From Rhodoblastus sp. (lineage in GTDB: Bacteria; Pseudomonadota; Alphaproteobacteria; Rhizobiales; Beijerinckiaceae): a DNA stretch of 64,000 nucleotides. The notes below the pieces were generated by a model. It was not told where the DNA came from. It did not search any database and worked only from the letters and a program-made list of their open reading frames with translations. Position numbers and translations under genes: made by a program. The stretch spans positions 4,488-68,487 of the forward strand of contig JBKDZW010000089.1 of NCBI GenBank assembly GCA_047971685.1, read 5' to 3'. Of the stretch, positions 16,817 to 63,897 are shown in pieces. Positions within the stretch are counted from its first letter, which is position 1. The number at the start of each line of letters is the position of its first letter.

Positions 16817-16877
16817 TGTTTCGATAATCATATTAAATATGGTTTCATAAATATATTTCGTAGTGTGGGAGGACATT

Positions 16878-47177: not shown

Positions 47178-47275
47178 ATGGTCGTTCCTGCCGGGGCATC
47201 CCGCCTATTGTCCGGGCAGCTATTGTCTTGGCGGCCCCGGATATGGGACAAGGCGCGCGCGGACCCGGGAAGCCA

Positions 47276-48160: not shown

Positions 48161-48172
48161 CAAACGGCGGAC

Positions 48173-49324
48173 ATGAACCAGACGCCGAAAATCCTTTCGA
48201 TCTATCTCGGCAAGCGCGTGCTGCTGGCAACGCTCGTCGTGCAGGTCGCGCTGACCATTCCGGTCGTGCTGTCGGCTCTGTTCCATCAATTGCCGCCGGC
48301 GGCGCTGCGTGGCGGCCTACTCGGCCCCGCGCTCGTCGGCACCTTGCCGACCGTCACCTATATCGCGCTGCCGATTTCGGTCGGCGTCGCCGCAGCGCTT
48401 GAATTTTCGCGCATGTCGTCCGAAGGCATGGTGGCGGTGCTCTATTCGCTGCGCCTGTCGGCCTGGTCGATTGCGCGTCCCGCCATCGTCTGCGCGCTCG
48501 GGGCGACCGCCGTCGGCTATCTGTGCTCTTGCTGGCTGGCGCCGCGCTATGTCGGCTCCATGCACGACGTGCTGAACGTCATCCGCCACTCGCTCAACCA
48601 TCGCATGCTCGAGGCCGGCCAGTTCTATTCCTTCGACGAGGGCCGGCGCATCGTCTTTTTCGAGCGCTGGGAGACCCCCGACATAGCCGCCAAGGTGTTC
48701 ATCCGGCAGCGCTCGCCGGAAAAGAAGGTCGAGGAGACGATCACGGCCGATCGCGCGGAATTCCGCCGCAACGATTTCAATGTCGTGATGATCCTGACCC
48801 ACGGGCAGATCCAGAGCCGCCCCGACGACGGGCGGCGCGTACGCGTGTCCGATTTCGACGAATACGCGATTTCGCTGCCCATGCAGGGCGCCAAGGCGCT
48901 GCCCTCGCGCTCCTGGAAGGGCGTGTTCGAGCTGAGCATGCCGGATTTCTTCGCCTATATGAAATACGCCATGGTCGACCGCCGCAATTTTGCGGAATGG
49001 GCGTCGGAGGCCGTCAAAAGGCTGGTGATTCCGGCGCTGGCGCTCGCCCATACGCTGCTGGGCGTCGGGCTGGTGCTCAATGTCGCCAGCGCAACCGGGC
49101 GGCGCTCGGCCGCCGGCGGGGCAGCGGTCGCCGCGCTGCCGGTCGTCCATATCGCCATTCTGGTGGCCGCCGAAACGCTGATCCGCGCCAATCCGGCGCT
49201 GGCGATCCTCGTCATCGGCCTGGCGCTTGCCGAAATCGCTTGCGGCATATGGCTCATCCAGCGCCAGCAGGTCGGCGATGCGCGCCGGGCGCCGCAAATT
49301 GCGCCGGTGCTTGCGGGGGCGTGA
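48173..49324 (+). CDS. LptF/LptG (YjgP/YjgQ) family permease, orphan copy
   Basis: N-terminal pattern …ILSIYLGKRVLLATLVVQVAL…. Also …EGMVAVLYSLRLSAWSIARPAIVCAL…. A periplasmic-sized middle region is followed by three C-terminal TM segments. It begins 12 nt after the preceding gene. Confidence 0.72.
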   Translation: MNQTPKILSIYLGKRVLLATLVVQVALTIPVVLSALFHQLPPAALRGGLLGPALVGTLPTVTYIALPISVGVAAALEFSRMSSEGMVAVLYSLRLSAWSIARPAIVCALGATAVGYLCSCWLAPRYVGSMHDVLNVIRHSLNHRMLEAGQFYSFDEGRRIVFFERWETPDIAAKVFIRQRSPEKKVEETITADRAEFRRNDFNVVMILTHGQIQSRPDDGRRVRVSDFDEYAISLPMQGAKALPSRSWKGVFELSMPDFFAYMKYAMVDRRNFAEWASEAVKRLVIPALALAHTLLGVGLVLNVASATGRRSAAGGAAVAALPVVHIAILVAAETLIRANPALAILVIGLALAEIACGIWLIQRQQVGDARRAPQIAPVLAGA

Positions 49325-49399
49325 ACCTGACCCCGGACCTTCAGGCTTTGCGGCCCGTTCGCGCGGCCTGTTCCGCCCAGGCCAGCGGCTTTTGCGGGA

Positions 49400-50200
49400 T
49401 CAGGCCGCCTGCCCGCCACCGACGACGCCAGCGGCCTCGTCTTCCTCGTCCTTGCGGACTGCGGCCTTGTAGGCGGGGATGATGTCGTCGGGATGGCCCA
49501 CTTCGCGCACCACGCCGGCGTCGATCCAGATCACGCGGTCGCAAAGCGTGCGCAGATAGTCGAGCCCGTGCGAAACGACCAGAATCGTGCCGCGCTTGGA
49601 AAATTCGGCGATGAAATTCTCGCATTTCTGCGCGAAAGCCTCGTCGCCGACCGAAAGCGCCTCGTCGACGATCAGAATGTCGGCGTCGACATGGGCGCAG
49701 ATGGCGAAGGCAAGCCGCGCGATCATGCCGCTCGAATAGAGCTTCATCGGCTGATCGAAAAACATGCCGATCTCGGCGAAATCGGCGATCTGATCGAGCT
49801 TGGCGACGATCTCGCGACGCGAGAGCCCCAGGACCGCGCCGCCGATGATCGCATTTTCGCGGCCGGACAATGTGGCGTCGAAGCCCGAGCCAAGCGCCAG
49901 GATAGGCGCAATGCGGCCGCGGATTTCGACCGTGCCGGTGGTCGGGCGCGTGATGCCGCACAGGATCTGGAGAAGCGTCGTCTTGCCCGCGCCGTTGCGG
50001 CCGATGATGCCGACGCATTCGCCCTTCCTGATATCGAAGGTGATATCGCGCAGCACCCAATGCTTTCTGTAATAGGTCTTGGCCCAGCCAAACAGCGCCT
50101 GCATCAACTGGTCGTTGCGGCGCAGGTAGAGCTGGAAGGCCTTGCCTGCGTTGCGGCAGGAAATCGCCAGTTCGGAAGACATCGGGCGATCAGAGGACAT
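49400..50200 (-). CDS. ABC transporter ATP-binding protein (Wzt/KpsT/TagH-like polysaccharide/lipid export type)
   Basis: Walker A GRNGAGKTT. Signature YSSGMIARL. Walker B ILIVDEAL. The N-terminus …LFGWAKTYYRKHWVLRDITFDI… is typical of ABC-2 exporters. An alternative start lies at 50182. Confidence 0.9.
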   Translation of the reverse strand: MSSDRPMSSELAISCRNAGKAFQLYLRRNDQLMQALFGWAKTYYRKHWVLRDITFDIRKGECVGIIGRNGAGKTTLLQILCGITRPTTGTVEIRGRIAPILALGSGFDATLSGRENAIIGGAVLGLSRREIVAKLDQIADFAEIGMFFDQPMKLYSSGMIARLAFAICAHVDADILIVDEALSVGDEAFAQKCENFIAEFSKRGTILVVSHGLDYLRTLCDRVIWIDAGVVREVGHPDDIIPAYKAAVRKDEEDEAAGVVGGGQAA

Positions 50201-51023
50201 CGACGATCACCGATTTGTATTCCTTGAAGAAACCGTAGCCGAACAGAAAGACAGCGTAAGAGGCCACGAAGCACGCCAGATACATCCACGGATCGGGAAA
50301 GCGCTCGTAGATCACAAGATCGCGCAGCATGGCGATGTAATCGCCTACCAGGTTGAGCTTGATCCAGGGTTGCAGATTGGCCGGCAATTGTTCGATCTGG
50401 AAGAAAACCGGCGTGGCGAACATCATCAGCGGCACGATCGAAACCATGAGATGGGCGACGTCGCGGGTAAAAGCGCCCAGCGCCATCAGGAACCAGACGG
50501 TGCCGAGCATCAAAAGCATGAACGGCAGGATGATGAGGGGTACGAAAATCACCTTCCACGAAATGAAGTGGACGGTGGCCAGCCGCACGGCGAGCAGCGT
50601 GGCGAAGCTGATCGCGCCATAGACGAGCGCGCGGATGGTGGAGGTCCAGGCGATCGTCTCGGACGGAAAGATCGACTTCTTGATGAAATGGACGTGCTCG
50701 TGCAGCAGCGTGGGCGAGCGCGCCGCCAGTTCCGCGAACACGTTGAACAGGATGAGGCCGCAAAAACTTGCCGCTGCATAATCGTAGATCGGCACGCCGG
50801 CTGCGACCGTCGGCGTCGCAATGGTGAAGATCGCAGTATAGACCAGCAGCATGGCGAGCGGCGCGAAGATCGCCCAGATCCAGCCCAGGAAGGAATCGCG
50901 GAACCGCGAGGTCAGTTCGCGCCGCACGACCGCGCGGATCAGCTCCCGGTGGTGCCAGGCCCGCTCGAACGGCTCAGTCAGGAATATCGGCAAGTCCTGG
51001 ATTTTCAACGCTGTGATTTCCAA
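50190..51023 (-). CDS. ABC-2-type transporter permease (Wzm/KpsM-like)
   Basis: TTG start. …HRELIRAVVRRELTSRFRDSFLGWIWAIFAPL… matches the ABC-2 N-terminal signature. Six predicted TM segments. Confidence 0.87.
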   Translation of the reverse strand: MEITALKIQDLPIFLTEPFERAWHHRELIRAVVRRELTSRFRDSFLGWIWAIFAPLAMLLVYTAIFTIATPTVAAGVPIYDYAAASFCGLILFNVFAELAARSPTLLHEHVHFIKKSIFPSETIAWTSTIRALVYGAISFATLLAVRLATVHFISWKVIFVPLIILPFMLLMLGTVWFLMALGAFTRDVAHLMVSIVPLMMFATPVFFQIEQLPANLQPWIKLNLVGDYIAMLRDLVIYERFPDPWMYLACFVASYAVFLFGYGFFKEYKSVIVDVL

Positions 51024-51504: not shown

Positions 51505-51774
51505 GTGGACTCTGTTGCGCAAGGCGATGAATTCTACGCCCAGATCATTGAAGTGATTTCGAAAGAGGGCATGGTCGAGGCCGACAAGGTCAAGCCCGAA
51601 GCCACAATCGAAAGTCTCGATCTCAAGTCTATCGACATCGTCATGATTCTGACGGCGATCGAGGAAAAATTCGACGTCTACATTCCCATGGACGGGGCCT
51701 TTCAGGAGGCCAAGACCGTTCAGGATCTGATCGACGCGCTGGCGACCCATATCAACAAAGAGAAGAAAAACTGA
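51505..51774 (+). CDS. Acyl carrier protein (dedicated, non-housekeeping type)
   Basis: PP-binding pattern …IESLDLKSIDIVMILTAIEEKFDVYIP…, with Ser in the LKS position of the usual D-S-L motif. GTG start chosen at 51505 because there is no in-frame ATG. The stop is directly followed by the KAS ATG (TGAATG). Confidence 0.72.
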   Translation: MDSVAQGDEFYAQIIEVISKEGMVEADKVKPEATIESLDLKSIDIVMILTAIEEKFDVYIPMDGAFQEAKTVQDLIDALATHINKEKKN

Positions 51775-52992
51775 ATGACGCAGGGCCGTCGGGTCGTCAT
51801 CACCGGCATGGGCGCCGTCTCCGGCGCCGGCGTCGGATGGAAGCCGCTGTGGAACGCCGCCCGCGAGGGCGCGAGCGTGGTCCGCGCGCTTGAATTTGCG
51901 CGCGATTATCCCGGCCGCATTCGCATCGGCGCGCAGGTTCCCGATTTCGATGCGGCCAAGCTGATCGAGCGCTCCACGCTGATGTATTGCGATCCCTTCA
52001 CGCAATACGCGATTGTGGCCGCCGATCAGGCGGTGGCCGAAGCCGGTTTCGACAACAAAAATGTCGGCGGCGCCGATTGCGCGGTCATTCTGGGGTCGGG
52101 CATTGGCGGCATCCGCACCGTCGACGACGGTCTCTTCGCGCTCTACGCAAAGGGCGTGAAGCCGGAACCGCTGAGCATTCCCAAGCTGATCGCCAGCGCC
52201 GGCCCCTCGATGCTGTCCATCCGCTACGACGCGCACGGGCCGGTGTTTGCGGTGGCCAGCGCGTGTTCCTCCGCAAATCAGGCGATCGGCATGGGCATGC
52301 ACATGGTGCGCTCCGGCATGGCCGAGCGCGCCATTGTCGGCGGCGCCGAGGCGAGCCTTTCGGTCGGCACCCAGATGACCTGGGAAATGCTGCGTGTGCT
52401 GACGCCGGACAAATGCCGCCCCTTCTCCAAGGGCCGCAACGGCATGAGCATCGGCGACGGCGCGGCCATGTTCGTTCTGGAAACCGAGGAGGCGGCGATG
52501 GCGCGCGGCGCGCCGATCCTGTGCCGCCTCGTGGGCTACGGCACTTCGGCGGACGCGCGCGACCCGATCCGCCCCGACGCGGACGGCGCCTCGCTCGCCA
52601 TGCGCCGCGCCATCGCGGACGCCGATATTCCCGCCGACACGATCCAGTACGTCAATGCGCACGGCACGGCGACCGCGCTCAACGATCCCACGGAAGCCGA
52701 GGCCATGGGCCGCATTTTCGGCGACAGGCTGGCCGAGGTCGCGGTCTCCTCGACCAAGCCGGTGCACGGCCATGCGCTGGGAGCTGCCGGCGCGCTGGAG
52801 CTGGTCTGCACCATCATGGCGATGCGCGAAAACATTGCGCCGCCGACGATCAATTTCCTCGAACCCGACCCCAAATGCCCTGTGGATTGCGTGCCCAACC
52901 AGGCGCGCGCCATGACGATCCGCACGGCCATGACCAATTCCTTCGCCTTTGGCGGCGTGAACGCCTCGCTCGTCCTCCAGGCGGCGGACTGA
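51775..52992 (+). CDS. Beta-ketoacyl-ACP synthase (KAS I/II, FabF-like)
   Basis: …RRVVITGMGAVSG…. Active-site Cys context AVASACSSANQAIG. His motifs NAHGTAT and …KPVHGHALGAAG…. 405 aa. Confidence 0.92.
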   Translation: MTQGRRVVITGMGAVSGAGVGWKPLWNAAREGASVVRALEFARDYPGRIRIGAQVPDFDAAKLIERSTLMYCDPFTQYAIVAADQAVAEAGFDNKNVGGADCAVILGSGIGGIRTVDDGLFALYAKGVKPEPLSIPKLIASAGPSMLSIRYDAHGPVFAVASACSSANQAIGMGMHMVRSGMAERAIVGGAEASLSVGTQMTWEMLRVLTPDKCRPFSKGRNGMSIGDGAAMFVLETEEAAMARGAPILCRLVGYGTSADARDPIRPDADGASLAMRRAIADADIPADTIQYVNAHGTATALNDPTEAEAMGRIFGDRLAEVAVSSTKPVHGHALGAAGALELVCTIMAMRENIAPPTINFLEPDPKCPVDCVPNQARAMTIRTAMTNSFAFGGVNASLVLQAAD

Positions 52993-52999
52993 GGGCGTC

Positions 53000-53422
53000 A
53001 TGGGCGTGGAGAGGCCGCTCGGGCCGCAGGAAACGGCCCTCGGTCCGTTCGAGGCTCTGGCCGATCCCGCCGCCATCGCCGCATTCAAGGCGGCGCTTGA
53101 CGCCCCGGGCGCGGTTCTTGACGCATCCGGCGCCGAAATTCCGGCGACTTTCCCGATTGTCTGGCTCTCTCTCCCCGCGCTCAAGACGGCGCTGCGCGAA
53201 GCCGCCGGCGCCGGCCACCTGCCGGTCCACGAATCCCAGTCCTTCGATTATGCGCAGCCGCTCGTTTCCGGCGCCGCCTATCGTATGAGCGTTGCGGCGC
53301 AACGCGAGAACGCCCCCCCGCGCCTCGTGGTCGAGGCTAAGGTCGCAGACGCCTCCGGCGCGAAAATCGTGACCATGCGCGCTGCGCTGCGGCTCGTTCC
53401 GCTGGCGGAGGGCGGCGCATGA
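53000..53422 (+). CDS. Hotdog-fold protein, MaoC_dehydrat_N / HadA-like (non-catalytic dehydratase subunit candidate)
   Basis: 140 aa, with pattern …PATFPIVW…ESQSFDYAQPLVSGAAY…RLVVEAKVADASG…. 4-nt overlap with the following MaoC gene. The assignment is by fold-like pattern and context. Confidence 0.6.
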   Translation: MGVERPLGPQETALGPFEALADPAAIAAFKAALDAPGAVLDASGAEIPATFPIVWLSLPALKTALREAAGAGHLPVHESQSFDYAQPLVSGAAYRMSVAAQRENAPPRLVVEAKVADASGAKIVTMRAALRLVPLAEGGA

Positions 53423-53823
53423 AACTTCCGGTTTCGCGCGGCGACACGATGCCGGAAACCATTGTCGGCCCGTTCGACGCGGCTGCGGTCGCAGCCTATG
53501 CGGCCGCCTCCGGCGACGACAATCCCTTGCATCTCGACGCTGCGCTTGCCGCCCGCGCAGGATTTGCCGCTCCGCCAGTCCATGGCATGCGGCTGATGGC
53601 CGAAATCGCGCCTGCGCTTGCCGCCTGGCGGCCGGACATGGCGCTCAAGCGCCTGTCGGCCACTTTCGTCGAGCCGTTGCTGGTCGGCGAGGAGGCGCGT
53701 CTTACGGCCCGCGTTCTTCGCGCGGAAGGCGACGTTCTGATGCGCATCGCCATCCAGGGGCCGCGTCGCGGTCCAAGCGTTCTGGCGGAAGCCGTTCTGG
53801 TTGCAAGGGCGGGCGCGTCATGA
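53419..53823 (+). CDS. MaoC-like (R)-specific hydratase/dehydratase (HadB-like catalytic subunit candidate)
   Basis: Hydratase-2 type motif …ASGDDNPLHLDAALAARAGFAAPPVHGM…. 134 aa. ATGA overlaps on both sides. Confidence 0.8.
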   Translation: MKLPVSRGDTMPETIVGPFDAAAVAAYAAASGDDNPLHLDAALAARAGFAAPPVHGMRLMAEIAPALAAWRPDMALKRLSATFVEPLLVGEEARLTARVLRAEGDVLMRIAIQGPRRGPSVLAEAVLVARAGAS

Positions 53824-54617
53824 GTCCTGCGCCGCGCTCCATCCTGATTACCGGCGCCTCCAGCGGCATTGGCCGGGCGCTTGCCCGCGAATATGCCGCG
53901 CCCGGCGTACGGCTGACGCTGGTTGGCCGCGACGGCGCGCGGCTTTCGGCCGCCGCCTCGGAATGCCGCGTCAAGGGCGCGGAAGTCGAAATCGGCCAGG
54001 TGGATGTGCGCGACCGGCAGGGCATGCACGATTTCTTGCGCGCTGCGGATGCAAAAGCGCCGCTCGATCTGGTGGTCGCCAACGCCGGCGTCAACACCGG
54101 CCTGCCGGCAGGCGCGCTCGCCGAAGATCCGGAAGCTGTGCGCGGCATTTTCGCGATCAACCTCCTCGGCGTTTTCAACACGGTGGAACCCATGATCGAG
54201 CCGATGGCCGCGCGTGGAAAAGGCGTGATCGCGATGACCGGCTCGATCGCCGCCGTGCGCGGCCTGCCCTATTCGCCGTCCTATTGCGCGACCAAGGCGG
54301 CGGTCCATCTTTACGCGGAATCCTTGCGCGGAACGCTCGCCCGCAAGGGCGTGACGGTCAGCCTGATCGTGCCGGGCTTCGTCCATACCGCGCTCAACGA
54401 GAAGCTGACCTCGCCGAAGCCGCTCGCCATGACCGACGAGCGCGCCGCGCGCATCGTCCGGCGCGGGCTCGACCGGCGCAAGGCCAACATCGTCTTCCCG
54501 CGCCTGCTGTATTGGGGGGCGCGGCTGCTGACGGTCCTGCCGGCGCGGCTCGTCGATTTCTTCATGGTGCGCCAGTATGTCGACGTGCCGGTCACGCGCG
54601 AGAGGATGACGCCTTGA
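53820..54617 (+). CDS. Classical SDR oxidoreductase (ketoacyl-ACP reductase or 3-ketosphinganine/oxo-ceramide reductase candidate)
   Basis: TGASSGIGRALA Rossmann motif, NAG motif, and catalytic S…YCATK. Confidence 0.88.
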   Translation: MSPAPRSILITGASSGIGRALAREYAAPGVRLTLVGRDGARLSAAASECRVKGAEVEIGQVDVRDRQGMHDFLRAADAKAPLDLVVANAGVNTGLPAGALAEDPEAVRGIFAINLLGVFNTVEPMIEPMAARGKGVIAMTGSIAAVRGLPYSPSYCATKAAVHLYAESLRGTLARKGVTVSLIVPGFVHTALNEKLTSPKPLAMTDERAARIVRRGLDRRKANIVFPRLLYWGARLLTVLPARLVDFFMVRQYVDVPVTRERMTP

Positions 54618-55786
54618 ACGTCGCTCTCGACATCCTGCGTTGGGCCACGCTCGTTTTCTGCGCGATCTCGCTCGCCGGCCTCGTGCTGACCGTAGCGCTC
54701 GGACTGATCTCGCCGCTGATCCATGCGCGCCGCGCGCGCAGGTCCGATCTGCCGCCGATCAGCTTTATCCTGCCTATCAAGGACTGGGCGACAAGCTTCG
54801 GTCCTTCGCAATCCTCGGTCTTTGCGCTCGACTATCCCGAATATGACGTGACCGCGACGGCGGCGGAGGCCGAATCGCAGGCCGTAACGGCGATGCGCGA
54901 CATTATTGCCGCCCATCCCGACCGCCCGGCCAAACTGGTGCAATCGACGGCCAGCTTTGCCGTCAGCCCCAAGGTCAACAATATTTACAGCGCGATCGAG
55001 GAGGCCAGATACGATCTCATCGCCACCAAGGATTGCAACATCGTGTTGCCGCCGCGCACCGCGCGCATGGCGGTCGCCGCCATGACCGAGAACGTGGGGC
55101 TTGTGACCGCCATAACCGAGGCGCGCGGCGCGACCTCGCTGGCGGCGCGGATCGAGGCCTCGATCATGAACCAGTCGCATGCGCGCTATCTTCACGCAGC
55201 GGCCGCGCTGGGGCTCGGTTTCGGGCTCGGCAAGCTGATGATCTTCAAGCGCTCGGATCTGCACCGGGCCGGCGGTTTTGAAGCCATCGCCCATACCGTG
55301 GGCGAGGATTCGGCGACCGCCCATGCGCTTGCAGGCATCGGCCTGCGCACGGTCATCATCGGCGCGCCGATCTATCAGGTGCTGGGCGCGCGCAAATTCG
55401 GCGATATGCACAACCGTCAGATGCGCTGGGCCGTCATAAGGCGCCAGAACGAACTGGCCGGTTTTCTGGCCGAACCTTTCGGCCTGTCGGTCTTTGTGGC
55501 GCTGGCGGCGGCTTTTGCGGCGCCGCTTCTTGGCTGGAGCGCGCCGGGCGCCTTTCTGGCGACGCTCGTCTTCTGGTTTGCCTGCGAAACCGCGCTTGCC
55601 TTGGCGCGGGGCTGGGATGTATCGGTGAGCGCGCCCTTCGTCATGGTCGCCCGCGATGCGATGATGGCTTCGGTCTGGCTGCGCGCCTGGTTCACCAGGC
55701 GGGTCGTCTGGGCGGCCGAAGTTTACGAGGCGCAGCAGGAGCGTGGCTCGATGCCTGCCCCCGCCCAGAAAAGGAATGATGCGTGA
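54614..55786 (+). CDS. GT21-family glycosyltransferase (ceramide glucosyltransferase / UGCG-like)
   Basis: A TTG start overlaps the SDR stop (TTGA). Regions align by eye to human UGCG: LPPISFILPIK…FALDYPEYDV, SPKVNNIYSAIEEARYDLIATKDCNIVLPP, MTENVGLVTAI, GEDSATAHAL, and Q-x-RW (NRQMRWAVIRR). The 661-aa ORF in the track includes an out-of-frame leader. Confidence 0.8.
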   Translation: MNVALDILRWATLVFCAISLAGLVLTVALGLISPLIHARRARRSDLPPISFILPIKDWATSFGPSQSSVFALDYPEYDVTATAAEAESQAVTAMRDIIAAHPDRPAKLVQSTASFAVSPKVNNIYSAIEEARYDLIATKDCNIVLPPRTARMAVAAMTENVGLVTAITEARGATSLAARIEASIMNQSHARYLHAAAALGLGFGLGKLMIFKRSDLHRAGGFEAIAHTVGEDSATAHALAGIGLRTVIIGAPIYQVLGARKFGDMHNRQMRWAVIRRQNELAGFLAEPFGLSVFVALAAAFAAPLLGWSAPGAFLATLVFWFACETALALARGWDVSVSAPFVMVARDAMMASVWLRAWFTRRVVWAAEVYEAQQERGSMPAPAQKRNDA

Positions 55787-57060
55787 CGGCGCAAGGATTG
55801 CTCGTCGGATTGATCGACATTGCGCTCACGCTATGCGTTCTCGGCATGGCGGCGATTGGCGCGAGCCTGCTCGTTCTGGTGGTTCGCTTTCTCTACGACC
55901 AGGCGCGCGGCGCAGGCGACGGTTCACGCGACGTCGCGCCGCTGGCGGAAGCCGACCTGCCGCATGTCGTCCTGCAAATTCCCGTTTTCAACGAGCCGCG
56001 CGTGGTGATCGGCGCCCTGCGCGCCGCCGCCGCGCTCGATTGGCCGCGCGAAAAACTGCACCTTCAATTGCTCGACGATTCCACCGACGAGACCACCGAG
56101 CGCGCCGCCGAACTGATCGCGGAATTGCGCGCCGAGGGCCACGACGTGCGCCATGTGCGCCGCGAGGACCGCACGGGCTTCAAGGCCGGCGCGTGCGCCG
56201 CCGGTCTGGCGCTCGACGATTCGCCGTTCGTGGCGATGCTCGATGTCGATTTCCGCCCGCCGGCCGACTGGCTGCGCAAGGCCATTCCCGTCATCGTCGG
56301 CGATCCCAAGGCCGGCTTCGTGCAGGCGCGCTGCGAATTCGCCAATTACCGCAAAAACTGGCTGACGCGCGTACAGGGCCTGATCCTCGACGGCCATTTC
56401 ATGATCGAGCAGCGCACCCGCGCCAATCTCGGCTGGCTGTTCCAGTTCAACGGCACGGGCGGCATATGGCGGCGCGCAGCCATCGATTCGGTCGGCGGCT
56501 GGCAGGATTATTCGCTGACCGAAGACCTCGACCTCACCATCCGCACCGCGCTTGCCGGCTGGCACGGCCGGTTCATTTCCGAGCCCGCCAGTCCCGGCCA
56601 GATGCCCGAGGGCATGCGCGACTGGCGCCGCCAGCAGCGCCGCTGGTCCAACGGCTTCATTCAGGTCGCCCAGCGGACGCTCGGACCGATCTGGACCGCG
56701 CCATGGAGCCTGGCCGAACGCCTGTCCTCGATCATGCTCGTGCTGCATCAGGTGTTCTTTCCGTTGTGCGCGGGCGCAATCATCCTCATCATTCTCGGCA
56801 TTCTGGCGCGAGGAATCTCGATTGCAGCCTATCTGCCGCTGTTCGGCCTGATCTTCCTGATGGTCTGCGCGGTCGTGATCGGCATGACCCTGCCGCCCTC
56901 TCTCGCGCTCAAGCGTGGGTCGTTCTGGCGCTATCTCGCCACCATGGCCATGCTGCCGCCGCTGTTCATCTATCTGGCCGTCGCCAATGCGCCGAAAATC
57001 ATCCAGACCGCGCGCGGGCGGCAGGAGCATTTCAAGCGCACGCCCAAGAAAGAGCATTAA
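55783..57060 (+). CDS. Family 2 glycosyltransferase, processive type (CslA / MGlcDG-synthase-like), membrane-embedded
   Basis: A GTG start overlaps the GT21 stop (GTGA). Motifs: …VVLQIPVFNE…, LLDDSTD, MLDVDF, TEDLDL and QQRRW (QxxRW). N-terminal and multiple C-terminal TM segments. Confidence 0.87.
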   Translation: MTAQGLLVGLIDIALTLCVLGMAAIGASLLVLVVRFLYDQARGAGDGSRDVAPLAEADLPHVVLQIPVFNEPRVVIGALRAAAALDWPREKLHLQLLDDSTDETTERAAELIAELRAEGHDVRHVRREDRTGFKAGACAAGLALDDSPFVAMLDVDFRPPADWLRKAIPVIVGDPKAGFVQARCEFANYRKNWLTRVQGLILDGHFMIEQRTRANLGWLFQFNGTGGIWRRAAIDSVGGWQDYSLTEDLDLTIRTALAGWHGRFISEPASPGQMPEGMRDWRRQQRRWSNGFIQVAQRTLGPIWTAPWSLAERLSSIMLVLHQVFFPLCAGAIILIILGILARGISIAAYLPLFGLIFLMVCAVVIGMTLPPSLALKRGSFWRYLATMAMLPPLFIYLAVANAPKIIQTARGRQEHFKRTPKKEH

Positions 57061-57455: not shown

Positions 57456-58907
57456 ATGGACGACAAACTTGCATTCGCCTCGGCGGCCACGCTCGCAAAA
57501 CTGGTGCGCGAAAAAAAGGTCGGGGCGGTCGAACTTCTGGAATTCTTTCTTGCGCGCGTCGAACGCCACAATCCCACTCTCAACGCCATCATCGTCCAGC
57601 GCGCGGACGCCGCCAGAAAAGAGGCTGCGGCCTGCGACGCCATGACCGCGAAAGGCCAGTCGATGGGGGCGCTGCACGGCGTGCCCATGACGGTCAAGGA
57701 ATCCTTCGATGTCGCGGGCACGCCGTCCACCTGGGGATTGACGGCGTTCCGCGACAATATCGCGGCCAGGGACGCGCTTTCCGTCGAGCGGTTGAAGGGC
57801 GCTGGCGCGGTCGTTTTCGGCAAGACCAATGTGCCGGCCTGGCTTGCCGACTGGCAATCGTTCAACCCGATCTACGGCACGACCAACAATCCCTGGAATG
57901 TCGGGCGCACGCCGGGCGGTTCTTCAGGCGGCAGCGCGGCGGCGCTGGCGGCGGGACTCACGGGGCTGGAGATAGGCAGCGACATCGGCGCCTCCATCCG
58001 CGATCCCGCCCATTATTGCGGGGTTTACGGCCACAAGCCGACCTTCGACATCTGCCCGCGCGACGGCCATCTCCTGCCCGGCGCCTATGCCCACGGCGAT
58101 ATTTCCGTGATCGGCCCGCTGGCGCGCTCGGCCTACGATCTGGAGACCGCGCTCGACATTATCGCAGGGCCCAATGCGCTCGAGGCCACGGGGCTGCGCC
58201 TGGAATTGCCGCGCTCGAAAAAGACGAAACTGTCGGAGTTTCGCGTCGCCGTCATGCCTTCGGCCGACACCGCGCCGGTCGATGGCGCCGTGCGTGAAAA
58301 AATCGAGGAGCTTGCCGGTTTTCTGGAAGGCCAGGGCGCCCATGTCGATCGCGCCGCGCGCCCCGTCGATCCAGCCGCCGCGCACGAGACCTACATCATG
58401 CTCCTGCGCTCGGCGACCAGCGGCGCGCTCGATGACGCGGTTTACGAAAAATTGCTGGCTGCGCGAAAAGAGGTTGCAGGGCGCAACGATTATTTCGCCT
58501 GGCATGCGCGCGCAAACACGATGGGCCATCGCGAATGGCTGCGCTGGAACAATGCCCGCGCGAAAATGCGGCTCGACTGGCAGGCGTTTTTTACCCGCTT
58601 CGATCTCCTGCTCTGCCCGACCGCCACGACAACCGCGTTTCCGCACATGCAGACCGGCGAGCGCTGGGAACGCATGATTTCGGTCGACGGCAAGGACCAG
58701 CCGACGACGACGCAGCTTTTCTGGGCGGGCTATTCCGGCATGGTCGATCTGCCATCGACCATCGCGCCGCTCGGGCTGGCGAAAGACGGCCTGCCGGTCG
58801 GCGTGCAGATCGTGGCGCCGGCCTATCGGGATCACAGCGCCATCCGCTTCGCGCAATTGCTGGAAGACCGGTATCGCGCGTTCGAGCCGCCGCCGGGGTT
58901 TGCATAA
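57456..58907 (+). CDS. Amidase-signature (AS) family amidase
   Basis: AS motif GGSSGGSAAALAAG, catalytic Lys context VPMTVKESF, and …GSDIGASIRDPA…. RBS GGGAGGA. Confidence 0.9.
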   Translation: MDDKLAFASAATLAKLVREKKVGAVELLEFFLARVERHNPTLNAIIVQRADAARKEAAACDAMTAKGQSMGALHGVPMTVKESFDVAGTPSTWGLTAFRDNIAARDALSVERLKGAGAVVFGKTNVPAWLADWQSFNPIYGTTNNPWNVGRTPGGSSGGSAAALAAGLTGLEIGSDIGASIRDPAHYCGVYGHKPTFDICPRDGHLLPGAYAHGDISVIGPLARSAYDLETALDIIAGPNALEATGLRLELPRSKKTKLSEFRVAVMPSADTAPVDGAVREKIEELAGFLEGQGAHVDRAARPVDPAAAHETYIMLLRSATSGALDDAVYEKLLAARKEVAGRNDYFAWHARANTMGHREWLRWNNARAKMRLDWQAFFTRFDLLLCPTATTTAFPHMQTGERWERMISVDGKDQPTTTQLFWAGYSGMVDLPSTIAPLGLAKDGLPVGVQIVAPAYRDHSAIRFAQLLEDRYRAFEPPPGFA

Positions 58908-58939: not shown

Positions 58940-59626
58940 TCAGAGCGGCTTGTCGCCGGGCTTGTCGTCCTTGGCATAGCCGGTGCCGAACACATCGTCC
59001 CAATAAGGGCAGCTCACGCCATAGCCGCGGTCGGGATCGCGGAAATGATGCAGGAGGTGCGCACGGCGCAGGATCTGCTCGACCCTGGTGTGCGGCGGGC
59101 GGTGATGAATGTGGTAGTGGATCTCGTCGTAGAGCACGTAGCCGACGAGGAAGCCGGCCGTGATCGAATAGGACAGAGGCTCCGGAAACAGCAGGGTGAT
59201 CACGACATAAGCGAGCGCCATCAGCGGCACGCTCATCAGCAGGGGCATGACGAGGCGCAGGGGATCGCTCGGATGCACGTGATGCACGCCGTGCAGCAGG
59301 AAGTGGATGCGCTCGCCGATCCTGCCGGGAAATTCCGTGTGAAAGACCCAGCGATGGAAGACATATTCGCAGAGCGTCCAGGCGATATAGCCGAAGATCA
59401 GGCAGGCGATGGTGATGAACGCCGGTTGCCCCCTGGCGCCGAGCCAGCCGAGCCAGGCGGCGAAGGGAAGATAGAACAGCGGCGCCCACCAGGGTACGCG
59501 CGAAAGCAGGTCCAGCACACGATTGTCGAAAATGCGCGGCGAGGCCGCCAGAAGCTCGGCCTTGCTCATGCCCTGCGTCGACATATGCGCGTATGGGTCG
59601 CGCGCGGTTTGCGTCGTGTCGCTCAT
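58940..59626 (-). CDS. Fatty acid 2-hydroxylase (FA2H/Scs7-like, fatty-acid hydroxylase superfamily) lacking a cytochrome b5 domain
   Basis: His boxes and flanks align by eye with human FA2H: WTLCEYVFHRWVFH, HFLLHGVHHVHPSDPLRLVMP, GYVLYDEIHYHIHH and LRRAHLLHHF…GYGVS…WDDVFGT. Confidence 0.85.
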   Translation of the reverse strand: MSDTTQTARDPYAHMSTQGMSKAELLAASPRIFDNRVLDLLSRVPWWAPLFYLPFAAWLGWLGARGQPAFITIACLIFGYIAWTLCEYVFHRWVFHTEFPGRIGERIHFLLHGVHHVHPSDPLRLVMPLLMSVPLMALAYVVITLLFPEPLSYSITAGFLVGYVLYDEIHYHIHHRPPHTRVEQILRRAHLLHHFRDPDRGYGVSCPYWDDVFGTGYAKDDKPGDKPL

Positions 59627-59636
59627 GCCAGTCTCC

Positions 59637-60647
59637 TCACGCCGCCGCAGTCGGCGCGCTTGTCGCCGGCGCCGGCGTACTTGCCGCCGGCGCCGCGCCG
59701 AGATTCTCGGTGCGCGACATCAGCGAATATCGCGGGTTGAAGATGAAATCGAAGAACAGTTTCACCCAGGATTTGTGGGCGTGCAGGTTATTGTAGAATT
59801 CCGGCGCCGTGGCCTTCAACCTGGGCAGCAGGGCCCAGGGGATTTCCTGAAAATCGTGATGTTCGTTGTGATAGCCGATGTTGAGCGCGAAGAAGTTCAG
59901 GGGGCCGTAGTAATCGAACGTGCCCTGCCCCGGCCAGGCCGCGTAATGCTCCTGAATCCAGCGCGCGCCCAGCGGATGCAGGCCGACCGAGAACCAGAAG
60001 GAAGCAAACAGGTAAAACAGCGCATTGCCGCCGAGGAAATACCAGACCGCGATGTCGAAGACCGCGATGACGGCGAAATTGACGTAGGTCCACAGGCCCC
60101 AGATCGGCACCGTGCCCTTGAGGCGGTAGATGCGGGTGAGCTGCATCACGGGGAAGAAGAACAGCCACAGGGCTTTGCGCCACCAGACATTGCCGACGAG
60201 TTTTGCCTCCCAGCCGGAGGGCACGTCGGCGTCGTAATCGTAGCTGGACAGATGCGAATGGTGCTTCACATGGTAGCAGCGAAAGCCCATGGCGGTCGGA
60301 AAGGCGTTGGGCAGATCGGCCAGAATCGCATTCCATTTGTTGAGCGTGGGGCTCTGGAACACGGCGTTGTGGATGGAATCGTGAATGATCACGAACATGG
60401 CGTGATTGGCGAATGCGCCGATTCCATAGGCGAGCAGCAGGGTCGCCCACCAATAGGACATGCCGAGATAGCCCATCCAGGCGGCGATCGCGACTTGCAG
60501 GACGAATACGCCGGCGGTGATCCAGAAGGTTCTGATGTCGCGCACCATGAGCTGGGCCACTTCCGGATGGGCGGCCAGGATCGCCTTGCGGCGATCGACA
60601 TGGCTTCGGTCGACGCCGAGAGCGGTAACGGGAACGCTCATGTTCAT
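59637..60647 (-). CDS. Sphingolipid Delta4-desaturase (DEGS1/Des1-like; Lipid_DES N-terminal region plus FA desaturase domain)
   Basis: Collinear by eye with human DEGS1: HVDRRKAILAAHPEVAQLM, NHAMFVIIHDSIHNAVF, FRCYHVKHHSHL, GLHPLGARWIQEHY, YYGPLNFFALNIGYHNEHHDFQEIP and SWVKLFFDFIFNPRYSLMSR. It carries an extra Ala/Pro/Thr-rich C-terminal tail. Confidence 0.9.
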   Translation of the reverse strand: MNMSVPVTALGVDRSHVDRRKAILAAHPEVAQLMVRDIRTFWITAGVFVLQVAIAAWMGYLGMSYWWATLLLAYGIGAFANHAMFVIIHDSIHNAVFQSPTLNKWNAILADLPNAFPTAMGFRCYHVKHHSHLSSYDYDADVPSGWEAKLVGNVWWRKALWLFFFPVMQLTRIYRLKGTVPIWGLWTYVNFAVIAVFDIAVWYFLGGNALFYLFASFWFSVGLHPLGARWIQEHYAAWPGQGTFDYYGPLNFFALNIGYHNEHHDFQEIPWALLPRLKATAPEFYNNLHAHKSWVKLFFDFIFNPRYSLMSRTENLGAAPAASTPAPATSAPTAAA

Positions 60648-60663
60648 GTCTGTCTTTCCCGCC

Positions 60664-61863
60664 TCACCCGGCCTGCGCCGCGCCCGTCAGGGCTGCTTGC
60701 GGCGCGCCGTCGAGGCGCTTCTCGTAGATACGATGGATTTTGTCGATTTTAGCGCCACTCATCTCAATGGGTCTGCGCATGCCGGCGTTATCTTCCAGAA
60801 CCCAGCCGAATTCCACTTGATCTAACGCAACTTTGCGGCTCCGCAGGCGTAATTCTTCTATCATGGTCATGATGACGATGCCGCCGCGTGCGCTCTTATG
60901 TAGCGCCTTCGTCATGCCGAACAGGGCGAGGCGGCCGGATTTATAGTCGCGTTTGCGAATGCGGGCGACCACCTTCGGCAGGCCGAACGGAAAAAGCCTG
61001 CCGTCGAGATCGGCCACGATCTCGTGCAGATTGGGCACGACAATTCCGAAGGCGACGGGCTCGCCGTCGATTTCGGTCACAAAGCCCCAATCCTCGGTCA
61101 TCAGGAATTTCAGGCTGTCGGCCATCGACTTGAATTCTTCGCGCGTGATCGGGACAAAGCCCCAGTTTCCGGCCCAGGCGTCGTTGAAAAGGCGCGTCAT
61201 CAGATCGACCTCGCTGTCGAGGTCGTTCATGCGCAGGGCCCGGAATTTCAGGCGTTCGCGCCATTCCGGGCGGTTGAGCAGCAAAGGCTCGGCGTTGCGG
61301 TCCGTCGCGGAGACATCGTAGCGGTAGGAAATGAGGTCGCGCGCCTTGGCGTAGCCCAGCGCCTCGACATGGGCGCTCAGATAGGGCGGATGCCAGGGAA
61401 TGAAGACCATGGGCGTGGCCTCGAAACCCTGGACCAGAAGGCCGCATTCGGCGTTGACCGAGGGCGAGAACGGCCCGTGGACAACCTCTGCGCCCTCGCG
61501 CTTCAGCCAGGCTTCCGCAGCCGCCAGCAGCGCCGCCACGACCTCGCGGTCGTCGACCGCATCGAGCGAGCCGAACTGATAGCGGGAAGCTAGATTGGGG
61601 CGGACCTCGTTATAGACCTGCGCCTCGATGCGGCCAACGGTCGCGCCGTCTCGTTTGGCCAGAAAGGCCTGCGAGCGCACGAGCCTGTAATGCGGATTGA
61701 GCTTGTGGGCGTACATGGCCCAGCGCTCGGCGTCGAGCGAGGGCGAAAAGCCCGGCCAGCCGCGATAGAGCCGGCGCGGCGCGCGGCAAAACTCCATGAA
61801 GGCGCGAAGGCCCGAGACGGGCGATATCTCGACGGCGTTCCGATGAACTGATGCTGCGGACAT
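60664..61863 (-). CDS. Large GNAT-like N-acyltransferase (bacterial ceramide synthase bCerS-like candidate)
   Basis: ~400 aa, with …AWLKREGAEVVHGPFSPSVNAECGLLVQGFE…PPYLSAHVEALGYAKARDL… and a C-terminal GNAT-like half. The start at ATG 61863 is inferred (alternatives at 61875 and 61899). The functional call rests on family resemblance recalled from the literature plus adjacency to the Spt-like gene. Confidence 0.68.
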   Translation of the reverse strand: MSAASVHRNAVEISPVSGLRAFMEFCRAPRRLYRGWPGFSPSLDAERWAMYAHKLNPHYRLVRSQAFLAKRDGATVGRIEAQVYNEVRPNLASRYQFGSLDAVDDREVVAALLAAAEAWLKREGAEVVHGPFSPSVNAECGLLVQGFEATPMVFIPWHPPYLSAHVEALGYAKARDLISYRYDVSATDRNAEPLLLNRPEWRERLKFRALRMNDLDSEVDLMTRLFNDAWAGNWGFVPITREEFKSMADSLKFLMTEDWGFVTEIDGEPVAFGIVVPNLHEIVADLDGRLFPFGLPKVVARIRKRDYKSGRLALFGMTKALHKSARGGIVIMTMIEELRLRSRKVALDQVEFGWVLEDNAGMRRPIEMSGAKIDKIHRIYEKRLDGAPQAALTGAAQAG

Positions 61864-61935
61864 GGCGCCGCCCATAGCACGGACGCAGGCCGGAACCAAC
61901 GCCGGCCTGCGCGAATTGGAGCGGTTCCAGACGGG

Positions 61936-63273
61936 TTAGAAAGCCGCCGCCGGCTGATCGCCCGGCAGGACGAGACCGCGCGGCGGCTCGACGACCGGCC
62001 GGTCGACGATCAATTGCACGACCTGGCGGATATCGTCCTCGGTGTGGCTGGCCGAGATGAAGAAGCGCAGGCGCGGCTTGTCCTTGGGCACGCCTACCTG
62101 CACGACGGGCGGCACATAGACGCCGTGCGCCAGCAGGTGCTGGGAGACGGCCATGGTCTCCCACACCGAATTGAACAGGATCGGCACGACGGCGCGCCCG
62201 ATCGCGGGGCCGGTGTCGAGGCCGGCGGCCTGCGCCGTGTTGCGCAGGAATTCGGCGTTATGCGCGAGTTTGGCGATGCGCCAGGATTCCGACTGCATCA
62301 GGTCCAGCGCCTTGGAGGCGGCAGCCGTGATGACCGGCGACAGGCCGACCGAATAGACGAAGCCCGGCAGGGTGAATTTCATCCAGTCGATGAGCAATTG
62401 CTTGCCGGCGACGAAACCGCCGCAGGAGGCGAAACTCTTCGACAAGGTGCCGACGATGAGATCGACGCGGGCGGGGTCGACGCCGCAATATTCGCACAGG
62501 CCCGCGCCGCGCTTGCCGAGAACGCCGATGGAATGGGCCTCGTCGACCAGAAGCCACACGCCGTGCTTTTCCTTGATGTCGCAGATGCGCGCCAGATCGA
62601 CCGTGTCGCCGTCCATCGAATAGAGGCTTTCGACGACGATCAGGCAATTGCGGTATTTCTCGCGGTGCTCGGTGAGCAATTGGTCGAGATGGTCGAAATC
62701 GTTGTGGCGGAATACGATCTGGGCCGCATCCGCATTGCGCGCGCCGGTCGCCACGCTGTTGTGCGACAATTCGTCGAGGAAGATCGCGTCGCGCTTGGCC
62801 ATCAGATGGGTGATGACGGTCAGATTGGTCAGATAGCCCGAGACCAGCGACAGCGTCGCTTCGGTTCCCAGAAACTTCGCGAGATTTTCCTCGAATTTCT
62901 GGTGGGTCGAACGCTCGCCGCCGACAAGGCGGGACGCGAGCGCGCCCACGCCCAGCGTGTCGATGGCCCGGTGGGCGGCCGCCTTCACTTCCGGATGCTC
63001 GGCAAGCCCCAGATAATCGTAATTGGCGAAAGAGACGTAATGCCCGCCGTTCCGGCCCTCGATCTCCGCCTTGAGCGTGTCGGTCGGCGCGAAGAACGGA
63101 TTGCCGTGCTCGTCGAGGATGGCTTTGCCGGCGAGCCTGTAGCGCCGGAACGCATAATCGGAGAGGCTTTGGTGTTTTTTCGCCACGCAGAAAGGTTCCG
63201 GTTGCGGGACGGTCCGCCCCTGATTGCGTCGCGCAGCGCGCTGGGCCGCCTGCCGACGCTGCCCCTTTACCAT
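61936..63273 (-). CDS. PLP-dependent alpha-oxoamine synthase, serine palmitoyltransferase (Spt)-like
   Basis: AOS family motifs …FANYDYLGL…, …SHNS…, …VDEAHSIG… and PLP-lysine GTLSKSF. BioF/KBL/ALAS alternatives are considered. The operon context with DEGS-, FA2H- and bCerS-like genes favours Spt. Confidence 0.8.
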   Translation of the reverse strand: MVKGQRRQAAQRAARRNQGRTVPQPEPFCVAKKHQSLSDYAFRRYRLAGKAILDEHGNPFFAPTDTLKAEIEGRNGGHYVSFANYDYLGLAEHPEVKAAAHRAIDTLGVGALASRLVGGERSTHQKFEENLAKFLGTEATLSLVSGYLTNLTVITHLMAKRDAIFLDELSHNSVATGARNADAAQIVFRHNDFDHLDQLLTEHREKYRNCLIVVESLYSMDGDTVDLARICDIKEKHGVWLLVDEAHSIGVLGKRGAGLCEYCGVDPARVDLIVGTLSKSFASCGGFVAGKQLLIDWMKFTLPGFVYSVGLSPVITAAASKALDLMQSESWRIAKLAHNAEFLRNTAQAAGLDTGPAIGRAVVPILFNSVWETMAVSQHLLAHGVYVPPVVQVGVPKDKPRLRFFISASHTEDDIRQVVQLIVDRPVVEPPRGLVLPGDQPAAAF

Positions 63274-63393
63274 TAACCCGCAGGTCTGCGCCAGTAGCAG
63301 GCAGACCGCCGAAGCTCCGCCAGCTAAACCATTGTCGCCGAAACAGTCAATTCAGGGCCGGGGCGGGGGCCCCGCCAGGGCTTGAACGGGCGT

Positions 63394-63461
63394 CCCCTCC
63401 CCCCATATTGTCATTGTGTGGCGCGCCGCAACGGGCGCTGCAAGACGAGGCGCCTGAGGGG
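63394..63461 (+). promoter_or_regulatory. Candidate 5'-UTR RNA thermometer (anti-SD CCCCUCCCC … SD GAGGGG) upstream of hsp20
   Basis: A C-rich run at 63394-63404 can pair with the putative SD GAGGGG (63456-63461). GC-rich self-complementary sequence lies between them. This is analogous in logic to ROSE elements, but I could not match the ROSE consensus. Confidence 0.3.
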
Positions 63462-63468
63462 CTTCCAC

Positions 63469-63897
63469 ATGTCGCGTACGCCTACCCTGAATTCTCCGTT
63501 CCTGCTGGGATTCGAGACCATCGAGCGTGCGCTTGATCGCGTGACGCGGGCCGCAAGCGACGGCTATCCGCCCTATAATATCGAGCGCCTGTCGCGTACC
63601 GAGAACGAGCCGGAGCGCCTGCGCATCACGCTGGCGGTCGCCGGTTTCAACCGCGAACAACTCGATATTACCGTGGAGGAGAACCAATTGGTCATTCGCG
63701 GACGCCAGCAGGAGGAGCGGGAGCGCAATTTTTTGCACCGCGGCATAGCCGCGCGGCAGTTCCAGCGCGCTTTTCTGCTTGCCGAGGGCATGCAGGTCCA
63801 AAGCGCCGATCTGTCCAACGGACTTCTTTCGGTCGACCTCGTCCGGCCCGAGCCGGAGCGGGTCATCCGCAAGATAGATATTTCCTCGCGCGACTGA
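63469..63897 (+). CDS. Small heat-shock protein (Hsp20/alpha-crystallin, IbpA-like)
   Basis: Start at MSRTPTLNSPFLLGF…. Alpha-crystallin domain …YPPYNIERLSENE…ITLAVAGF…LDITVEENQLVIRG…F…L…V…A.L.NGLL.V.L. Confidence 0.9.
   Translation: MSRTPTLNSPFLLGFETIERALDRVTRAASDGYPPYNIERLSRTENEPERLRITLAVAGFNREQLDITVEENQLVIRGRQQEERERNFLHRGIAARQFQRAFLLAEGMQVQSADLSNGLLSVDLVRPEPERVIRKIDISSRD

Follow-up and report, generated by a model that had tools for sequence, protein, structure and literature searches.

A 64-kb stretch of DNA from a Rhodoblastus sp. metagenome-assembled genome (MAG) of the family Beijerinckiaceae (genome GC 64%), referred to in its entirety as the window, carries four adjacent minus-strand genes that we predict, with a probability of about 75%, to be transcribed as a single unit whose products assemble a ceramide and complete its tailoring in the cytoplasmic membrane. 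In order, these genes encode an α-oxoamine synthase (AOS) dependent on pyridoxal phosphate (PLP), a member of the family of the bacterial ceramide synthase bCerS, a homolog of the sphingolipid desaturase DEGS1 (DES) and a homolog of the ceramide hydroxylases Scs7p and FA2H (FAH). The window genes carry generic annotations in public records, and the assignments given here come from comparisons of sequence, predicted fold and gene context. The four genes and the region upstream of them are as follows.

63273..61936, minus strand: gene 1, AOS, 445 aa from the ATG; the probable start is the GTG at 63186, which gives 416 aa
61863..60664, minus strand: gene 2, bCerS-like, 399 aa, identical to NCBI MFV0280707.1
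60647..59637, minus strand: gene 3, DES-like, 336 aa
59626..58940, minus strand: gene 4, FA_hydroxylase, 228 aa
63274..63381, no strand assigned: upstream intergenic region, presumed from its position to be the operon promoter region, common to the divergent hsp20 gene

Architecture of the operon

The gaps between the genes, from gene 1 to gene 4, are exactly 72, 16 and 10 nt, in agreement with a preliminary description of this DNA that had been made from the sequence by itself and had proposed a ceramide operon of four same-strand genes with gaps of about these lengths. Its statement that no obvious terminators separate the genes also holds: a terminator scan returned 4 terminator-like sites, all of them intragenic and in line with the 3.8 ± 1.9 expected of shuffled sequence, and none in any of the three gaps. 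All four open reading frames show an excess of GC at the third codon position (GC3 of 0.78–0.84 versus GC2 of 0.42–0.45), the pattern expected of real genes at 64% GC. No Rfam family matches across 45–64 kb of the window, a repeat scan of the operon gave chance-level repeats only, and a promoter scan gave a single intragenic match, also at chance level, with no sigma-70-like site in 63274..63381. A common strand, short gaps, freedom from intrinsic terminators and a kept gene order are thus all found here, and the four genes are probably co-transcribed as a single unit. The operon observation of the preliminary description is confirmed, and its interpretation proves to be largely right and is supported by what follows.

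An Hsp20 small heat-shock gene (63382–63897, plus strand) diverges from the operon, with a common upstream stretch of roughly 110–200 nt, and stress-linked control of the ceramide genes through this region is conceivable.

Three gene products belong to families of ceramide metabolism

Gene 2 has no match in Pfam, in NCBIfam or among the sequences of the PDB, so its family assignment relied on synteny and on YghO. It is 38% identical to YghO of E. coli BL21(DE3) over 370 of its 399 residues (E = 5e-84), and YghO (ECD_02850) and Caulobacter CC_1154 are tabulated as orthologs, being the acyl-transferase of the sphingolipid cluster (PMC9386255). In the E. coli BL21 locus, which we retrieved, yghO is found with genes for a fatty acyl-AMP ligase (aasR), an epimerase, an acyl carrier protein (ACP; acpR) and Spt and with lptG/lptF paralogs. 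An AlphaFold (AF2) model of gene 2 (pLDDT 88.5, pTM 0.88) has as its top Foldseek matches in the PDB 5kf1, 2wpw, 7q3a and MshD, all of them tandem GNATs (E of about 1e-12 to 1e-10), and the protein has the GNAT-type fold, soluble and without transmembrane segments, that is expected of a bCerS.

The gene 2 family is a large one, of ~380-aa proteins with 4,800 representatives at 50% identity. In a scan of this family restricted to one genome per species, which yielded 80 loci, the gene 2 type adjoins an AOS gene both in the window and at 17 related loci, and distant homologs adjoin Spt genes that pass an equivalog model. Homologs 36–38% identical to gene 2 have genes for an AMP-ligase, an epimerase, an ACP and Spt as neighbours in Enhydrobacter (E. 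aerosaccus), Salinisphaera and Hydrocarboniphaga, and the Spt genes of these three loci (L051, L078 and L042) score 606–674 bits against the NCBIfam Spt equivalog, for which the cut-off is 500. Sequence, fold and context together establish gene 2 as a member of the bCerS/YghO/CC_1154 family, as had been proposed, and its product would N-acylate 3-ketosphinganine or sphinganine.

Gene 3 scores above cut-off for both of the Pfam domains of DEGS1/Des1, PF08557 Lipid_DES (30.9 bits, cut-off 23) and PF00487 FA_desaturase (82.5 bits, cut-off 29.7), and it has the same three histidine boxes (HDSIH, HVKHH and HNEHH), of which HNEHH is identical. It is 35% identical to human DEGS1 over 306 of its 336 residues (E = 5e-61); the human reference sequence was entered by hand, and the strength of the match marks gene 3 as a real DEGS1 homolog despite this. 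By sequence, gene 3 has no match among the solved structures in the PDB, and the bacterial desaturase models of NCBIfam give it negligible scores. The FA_desaturase domain is found in all of the 120 listed homologs of gene 3 and Lipid_DES in all but two, and the name given to these homologs by NCBI is ‘fatty acid desaturase’. Gene 3 is accordingly placed among the homologs of the sphingolipid Δ4-desaturases and C4-hydroxylases, which are membrane di-iron enzymes, and the DEGS-like label of the preliminary description stands. Its product would introduce a 4,5-trans double bond or a 4-hydroxyl group into dihydroceramide. In contrast to DEGS1/Des1, gene 3 is bacterial and is operon-encoded beside a bCerS gene, its activity is a prediction from sequence, and the window’s ceramide gene neighbourhood holds no cytochrome b5 or b5 reductase.

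Gene 4 carries the Pfam domain PF04116 FA_hydroxylase (1.7e-17, 64.5 bits). Its residues 32–223 align with residues 185–377 of yeast Scs7p (4zr1), that is, with the whole of the four-helix di-iron catalytic domain from end to end (E = 5.5e-30, ~42% identity), and 12 of 13 histidines are conserved. We place it with the Scs7p/FA2H/FAH-type ceramide N-acyl 2-hydroxylases, in keeping with its earlier description as FA2H-like; JGI’s automated name for its homologs, one of the plant type, is ‘dihydroceramide fatty acyl 2-hydroxylase’. Unlike Scs7p and FA2H, the 228-residue protein has no fused N-terminal cytochrome b5 domain, as judged from Pfam and the Scs7p alignment, and it is in this respect that it resembles the plant FAH1-FAH2 enzymes. 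Ring et al. in 2009 are said to have tied FA2H-like hydroxylases to sphingolipid 2-hydroxy acids in myxobacteria.

In a betaproteobacterial MAG (locus L087, 39–3994) the DES and FAH genes share a 4-nt overlap, and the gene of a major facilitator superfamily transporter comes after them; a convergent gene there encodes a reductase with NAD_binding_1 and 2Fe-2S (Fer2) domains that could be an electron donor. A dedicated reductase partner of this kind was considered for the window and rejected, since neither the window nor any of the other loci has a homolog of that gene.

The preliminary description called both tailoring steps classically eukaryotic. This does not fully hold for 2-hydroxylation, which is known in Caulobacter, where hydroxylation of the N-acyl chain is carried out by a different, DesA-family protein, CC_0202 (PMC11324152). 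For Δ4-desaturation we found, among the top-ranked matches of the literature searched for it, no report of a bacterial DES, and a 2023 review of bacterial sphingolipids makes no mention of a desaturase or a hydroxylase (PMC10626005).

Conservation of the cluster

The order AOS, bCerS, DES on one strand is found in 11 of the 12 untruncated related loci of Beijerinckiaceae and Methylocystaceae, represented by Methylocapsa acidiphila B2 and by MAGs classified as Methylocella, Beijerinckiaceae or unclassified Alphaproteobacteria, and gene order and strand are kept across Rhodoblastus, Methylocapsa, Methylocella, Methylovirgula and Methylocystis. The complete set of four genes is also found in the cultured Methylocystis parvus (CP044331.1), where they stand alone among housekeeping genes, an arrangement that marks them as a self-contained module. 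FAH follows DES in the window, in two of the MAGs (L012 and L015), in M. parvus and in one betaproteobacterial MAG. Given the recurrence in 11 of 12 loci and in M. parvus, the adjacency of the four genes is beyond chance.

A predicted route and its relation to known systems

In the route that we propose, the AOS would condense a long-chain acyl thioester with an amino acid, for which L-serine is the likeliest candidate, to give a 3-keto sphingoid base, which the tandem-GNAT bCerS would then N-acylate, as in Caulobacter. A reductase encoded outside the operon, possibly a cytoplasmic classical short-chain dehydrogenase/reductase (SDR) rather than CerR, would reduce the 3-keto group. The DEGS-type di-iron enzyme would next modify the long-chain base at C4, by Δ4 desaturation or by C4 hydroxylation, and the Scs7p/FAH-type di-iron hydroxylase would place a 2-hydroxyl group on the N-acyl chain; because gene 4 has no fused cytochrome b5, its electron donor would be unlinked. 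As an extension of this route, neighbouring glycosyltransferase, ACP and ketosynthase (KAS) and LptF-like and ABC transporter genes may serve to provide the acyl chain, to glycosylate the lipid and to export it.

In the papers on bacterial sphingolipids consulted here, ceramide synthesis is described as the work of Spt, bCerS and CerR, usually together with AcpR and AasR, and a desaturase of the sphingoid base is not mentioned. The window resembles the Caulobacter and E. coli B clusters (CC_1162-1165 with CC_1154; ECD_02850-02854) in that an AOS is paired with an N-acyltransferase of the YghO/CC_1154 family and in that LptF-like paralogs and glycosyltransferases lie nearby (PMC11324152 for Caulobacter). 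It differs from them in that its AOS falls in another clade and is 33% identical to the E. coli B Spt, in that it has neither an acyl-ACP synthetase nor an epimerase-type CerR, and in that its AOS and bCerS genes are directly adjacent. The window also adds DES and FAH, neither of which lies within 10 kb of the canonical clusters, with the exception of FAH in two Nevskiales loci. The operon is best classed, as a prediction, as a variation on the known bacterial pathway that would combine a different condensing-enzyme lineage, the absence of AasR and CerR from the window, and operon-encoded tailoring enzymes of the DEGS and FAH types.

The reductase step

The operon contains no reductase gene, as the preliminary description had pointed out, and in tblastn searches with the proteins of L051 and L078 no homolog of CerR (epimerase/NDUFA9 type, at E ≤ 1e-3) or of AasR was found anywhere in the 64-kb window. 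The nearby candidate named in that description is a classical SDR, which belongs with a set of fatty acid synthase (FAS)-like genes.

53820..54617, plus strand: classical SDR, adh_short 3.7e-43, with TGxxxGIG and YxxxK motifs; candidate 3-keto reductase or ketoreductase of a FAS-like module, association with the ceramide operon tentative
51505..53823, plus strand: ACP, FabF-like KAS and two HadA/HadB-like dehydratase subunits; possible acyl-ACP supplier, association tentative

This SDR had been placed in a divergent operon. Its operon and the ceramide operon are in fact convergent, meeting tail to tail across an amidase gene. In one alternative to leaving the reductase unassigned, the SDR is itself the 3-keto reductase and provides a KDSR-like cytoplasmic step in place of the periplasmic CerR, such that DES and FAH would meet the reduced substrate on the cytoplasmic face. 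We take this possibility seriously while leaning against it. It would account for the lack of a CerR homolog in the window, and the SDR has no signal peptide and has PRK07024 as its top NCBIfam model, with a score (198 bits, cut-off 266) far above the ~100–110 bits of the FabG models. PRK07024 is also the top model of SDRs that directly adjoin bCerS or Spt genes in an Acetobacteraceae MAG (L018), Gluconacetobacter sacchari (L029), Komagataeibacter europaeus (L047) and Salinisphaera (L078); these are 36–39% identical to the window SDR (E of 6e-37 to 2e-43), a level of identity that is common among unrelated SDRs, and all of the scores lie below the PRK07024 cut-off. A precedent exists in BT_0972 of Bacteroides thetaiotaomicron, a classical SDR that serves as 3-ketosphinganine reductase instead of CerR and that is likewise unlinked to spt (PMC9278070), although BT_0972 acts on the free base and is likened to the window SDR by description. 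Moreover, Caulobacter CerR is periplasmic (PMC11087976), which would be a poor fit with cytoplasmic di-iron tailoring enzymes, and a cytoplasmic reductase upstream of membrane di-iron enzymes would make mechanistic sense.

Set against this, a block of ACP, KAS and dehydratase genes is expected to include a β-ketoacyl-ACP reductase, and the position of the SDR suggests that it is the ketoreductase of that module. Within 10 kb of the four-gene operon of M. parvus there is no SDR gene, and the Salinisphaera operon holds both CerR and an SDR, so that an SDR of this kind need not replace CerR. The preliminary candidate is a classical, PRK07024-like SDR, and its place inside a KAS/dehydratase module leaves a role as sphingoid reductase a limited possibility.

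Three of the loci with SDRs of this type are of interest in their own right. In Salinisphaera sp. T5B8 (L078, 4421–9476) a canonical aasR-cerR-acp-spt operon runs on into a PRK07024-like SDR gene, so the SDR subgroup accompanies ceramide genes even alongside CerR. In G. sacchari (L029, 7990–12254) and K. europaeus (L047, 6909–11251) a conserved arrangement, set among housekeeping genes, has a glucokinase-SDR pair divergent from a bCerS homolog and an AIR-synthase-like gene.

The Acetobacteraceae MAG (L018, 6282–11134) carries a compact set in which the genes of an FA_hydroxylase, a DUF2141 protein, an AOS of the window type and a classical SDR diverge from that of a bCerS homolog, and this set could represent a minimal cluster of condensing enzyme, reductase and acyltransferase without CerR. 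Its AOS is 51% identical to that of the window, and it has the bCerS homolog, PRK07024-like SDR and FA_hydroxylase in common with the window. In contrast to the window it has no DES gene and a different gene order, and it is itself uncharacterised.

The tailoring steps

A second alternative keeps the ceramide operon and changes the chemistry of its last two steps: DES could be a C4-hydroxylase of the phytoceramide type or a desaturase acting at another position, and FAH may have the long-chain base as its target instead of C2 of the N-acyl chain. Some members of the DEGS family are bifunctional, with desaturase and C4-monooxygenase activity, and while many gene 3 homologs bear the automated JGI name ‘sphingolipid delta-4 desaturase’, some are named ‘sphingolipid 4-desaturase/C4-monooxygenase’. 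In a similar way, PF04116 also spans sphingoid C4-hydroxylases and sterol enzymes, and the NCBI name for gene 4 is ‘sterol desaturase family protein’. However, FAH aligns with Scs7p over the whole of its catalytic domain and keeps the histidine clusters, and we consider this alternative unlikely. Δ4 desaturation or C4 hydroxylation by gene 3, followed by 2-hydroxylation by gene 4, remains the preferred assignment.

The condensing enzyme and the case against a ceramide product

Gene 1 is clearly, from its sequence, an active-looking AOS. It matches Pfam Aminotran_1_2 (1.9e-53), and the PLP motifs SHNS, DEAHS and TLSKSF, the last with the Schiff-base lysine, are intact and align with those of the E. 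coli B Spt. Its probable start is the GTG at 63186, where the NCBI model MFV0280708.1 begins and from where alone the homologs align; the 29 residues between the ATG at 63273 and this GTG are not conserved in homologs. The preliminary description of gene 1 as spt-like stands as regards an AOS with its PLP motifs in a ceramide-gene context. It does not stand as regards the Spt family proper, since gene 1 falls below all of the Spt cut-offs and outside the Spt clade.

A series of observations weighs against the prediction of a ceramide operon, and the first of them concern this enzyme. Gene 1 fails all three NCBIfam Spt models (294, 286 and 206 bits, for cut-offs of 500, 640 and 670), and its top NCBIfam model is bioF, at 350 bits and below the cut-off of 426. 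Its identity is ~30% to each of Spt, BioF and Kbl, with 33% to the E. coli B Spt, and among the AOS signature positions it has 7 in common with Spt and 7 in common with BioF/Kbl. A neighbour-joining tree of 48 sequences, crude and with two outgroup enzymes only, places the window AOS clade (18 sequences, from Beijerinckiaceae and Methylocystaceae loci and one Acetobacteraceae MAG) outside the 26 canonical Spt sequences. This clade has 21 specific substitutions at positions that are otherwise conserved in canonical Spt, BioF and Kbl, among them H-A-S to H-N-S beside the PLP-stacking His and N-N-Y-L-G to N-Y-D-Y-L-G, and together these may be a specificity signature.

Further points on the same side concern the operon as a whole. 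No reductase, AasR or AcpR is linked to it: tblastn of the window with AasR and CerR of L051 and L078 and with the ACP of L051 gave no match, and the window ACP (51505) is 28% identical to E. coli AcpR over 57 residues and lies in another operon. No electron-transfer partner was found near the operon. FAH is absent from most Beijerinckiaceae loci, and gaps of ~240–430 nt in M. parvus and some other loci make internal promoters possible. Finally, among the top-ranked matches of the literature pairing sphingolipid terms with Rhodoblastus, Methylocystis and Methylocella, we found no report of ceramides in these taxa.

As gene 1 fails the Spt models and lies outside the Spt clade, the call of Spt activity rests on context. 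This context is specific: across the 18 loci examined, the window AOS clade never occurs apart from a bCerS homolog, and DES, FAH and GT21 genes lie nearby, and the closest relative of gene 1 outside the family, the Acetobacteraceae enzyme described above, is itself beside an SDR gene and a bCerS homolog. Independently of this analysis, Methylocystaceae have been scored as having SPT (PMC10411912). We accordingly put the chance that gene 1 would use L-serine at roughly two in three.

In a third alternative, the product of the cluster would not derive from serine and would be an N-acylated amino-ketone or amino-alcohol lipid, for example a 1-deoxy-sphingoid base from alanine or glycine or the product of another amino acid, and the AOS would be an enzyme of new specificity rather than Spt. 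The scores below the Spt cut-offs with bioF as best model, the position outside the Spt clade and the clade-specific substitutions, one of them beside the PLP-stacking His, all speak for such a lipid, as does the equal distance of gene 1 from cysteate acyltransferase and KAPA-synthase-like enzymes among its relatives in the PDB. Yet the characterised members of the downstream enzyme families act on dihydroceramide or ceramide, a GT21 enzyme encoded in the adjoining conserved block would need the C1 hydroxyl group, and no bio, tdh or hem genes are found near the operon, either in the window or at the M. parvus locus. On balance we hold a non-serine lipid to be improbable, and a serine-derived ceramide the better supported product. 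The identification of gene 1 as BioF, for all that bioF is its best model, finds no support in the gene context, with bio genes absent nearby.

That the four genes are adjacent yet functionally unrelated or separately transcribed is very improbable, since the longer gaps in M. parvus and some other loci and the frequent absence of FAH are set against an order and strand kept across five genera, window gaps of 10–72 nt without a terminator-like site, and products that all fit consecutive steps of one pathway.

Significance

The conserved module described here hard-wires a bacterial bCerS to enzymes of the DEGS and FAH types and predicts eukaryote-like ceramides in methanotrophs and in acidophilic soil and peat Alphaproteobacteria, an ecologically important group. 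At somewhat less than even odds, we further propose that the Beijerinckiaceae and Methylocystaceae, with the phototroph Rhodoblastus and methanotrophs in culture among them, produce sphingosine-type (Δ4-unsaturated or 4-hydroxylated) ceramides with 2-hydroxy-acyl chains, and that they would do so independently of the Caulobacter system, with a separate AOS lineage, no AasR or CerR, a cytoplasmic classical SDR and prokaryotic DEGS and FAH orthologs. Homology screens based on Spt or CerR will miss such producers. If the prediction is correct, environmental sphingosine-type ceramides regarded as ‘eukaryotic’ might have bacterial sources, gene 3 would be the first functional bacterial dihydroceramide desaturase, and the operon would bear on whether the eukaryotic DEGS and FAH enzymes arose in Alphaproteobacteria or, conversely, bacteria acquired them from eukaryotes. 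Cultured carriers, namely Methylocystis parvus and Methylocapsa acidiphila B2, are available for direct tests.

Neighbouring genes in the window

Beyond the SDR and the ACP-KAS-dehydratase genes, the following plus-strand or flanking features lie close to the operon.

54614..57060, plus strand: GT21 (ceramide-glucosyltransferase family; PF13506 2.5e-42) and GT2 (PF13632 5.4e-27) genes; possible head-group addition, tentative
57456-58907, plus strand: amidase gene located between the two lipid operons; scores above cut-off for the PRK06170 equivalog (612 bits versus 503)
45906-51023: GT1 glycosyltransferase, nucleoside-diphosphate (NDP)-sugar-transferase-like protein, LptF-like paralog, and ABC ATPase with ABC-2 permease

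The block of ACP, KAS, SDR and glycosyltransferase genes adjoins AOS-bCerS-DES in seven Beijerinckiaceae loci, and the operon at 51505-57060 contains no enoyl reductase. In a Labrys MAG (L062) the same block starts with a bCerS-like gene, and no AOS gene lies within 10 kb. The GT21 gene was considered as the hopanoid enzyme HpnI and rejected as an ortholog, since it scores 144 bits for a cut-off of 310. The amidase was likewise considered as a pathway member, for instance a ceramidase, and rejected, being a match to a generic amidase equivalog and absent from all of the 80+ related loci; its absence from every related locus makes it probably an unrelated insertion.

LptF2/LptG2 paralogs have been tied to sphingolipid export in Caulobacter (PMC11324152) and in E. 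coli B. The genes at 45906-51023, whose LptF-like paralog scores 116 bits against an LptF cut-off of 230, are reminiscent of the paralogs in those two clusters, and a region of ~17 kb devoted to glycosphingolipid synthesis and export is plausible.

The part of the window from 6 to 33268 is given over to unrelated metabolism and transport, with genes for an MscS channel, a TRAP transporter, an FMO-like oxidoreductase, AtuA, a thiamine pyrophosphate (TPP) enzyme and a sulfatase, and it also includes a UDP-glucose dehydrogenase (9970-11271) and a pyruvate formate-lyase (16863-19139).

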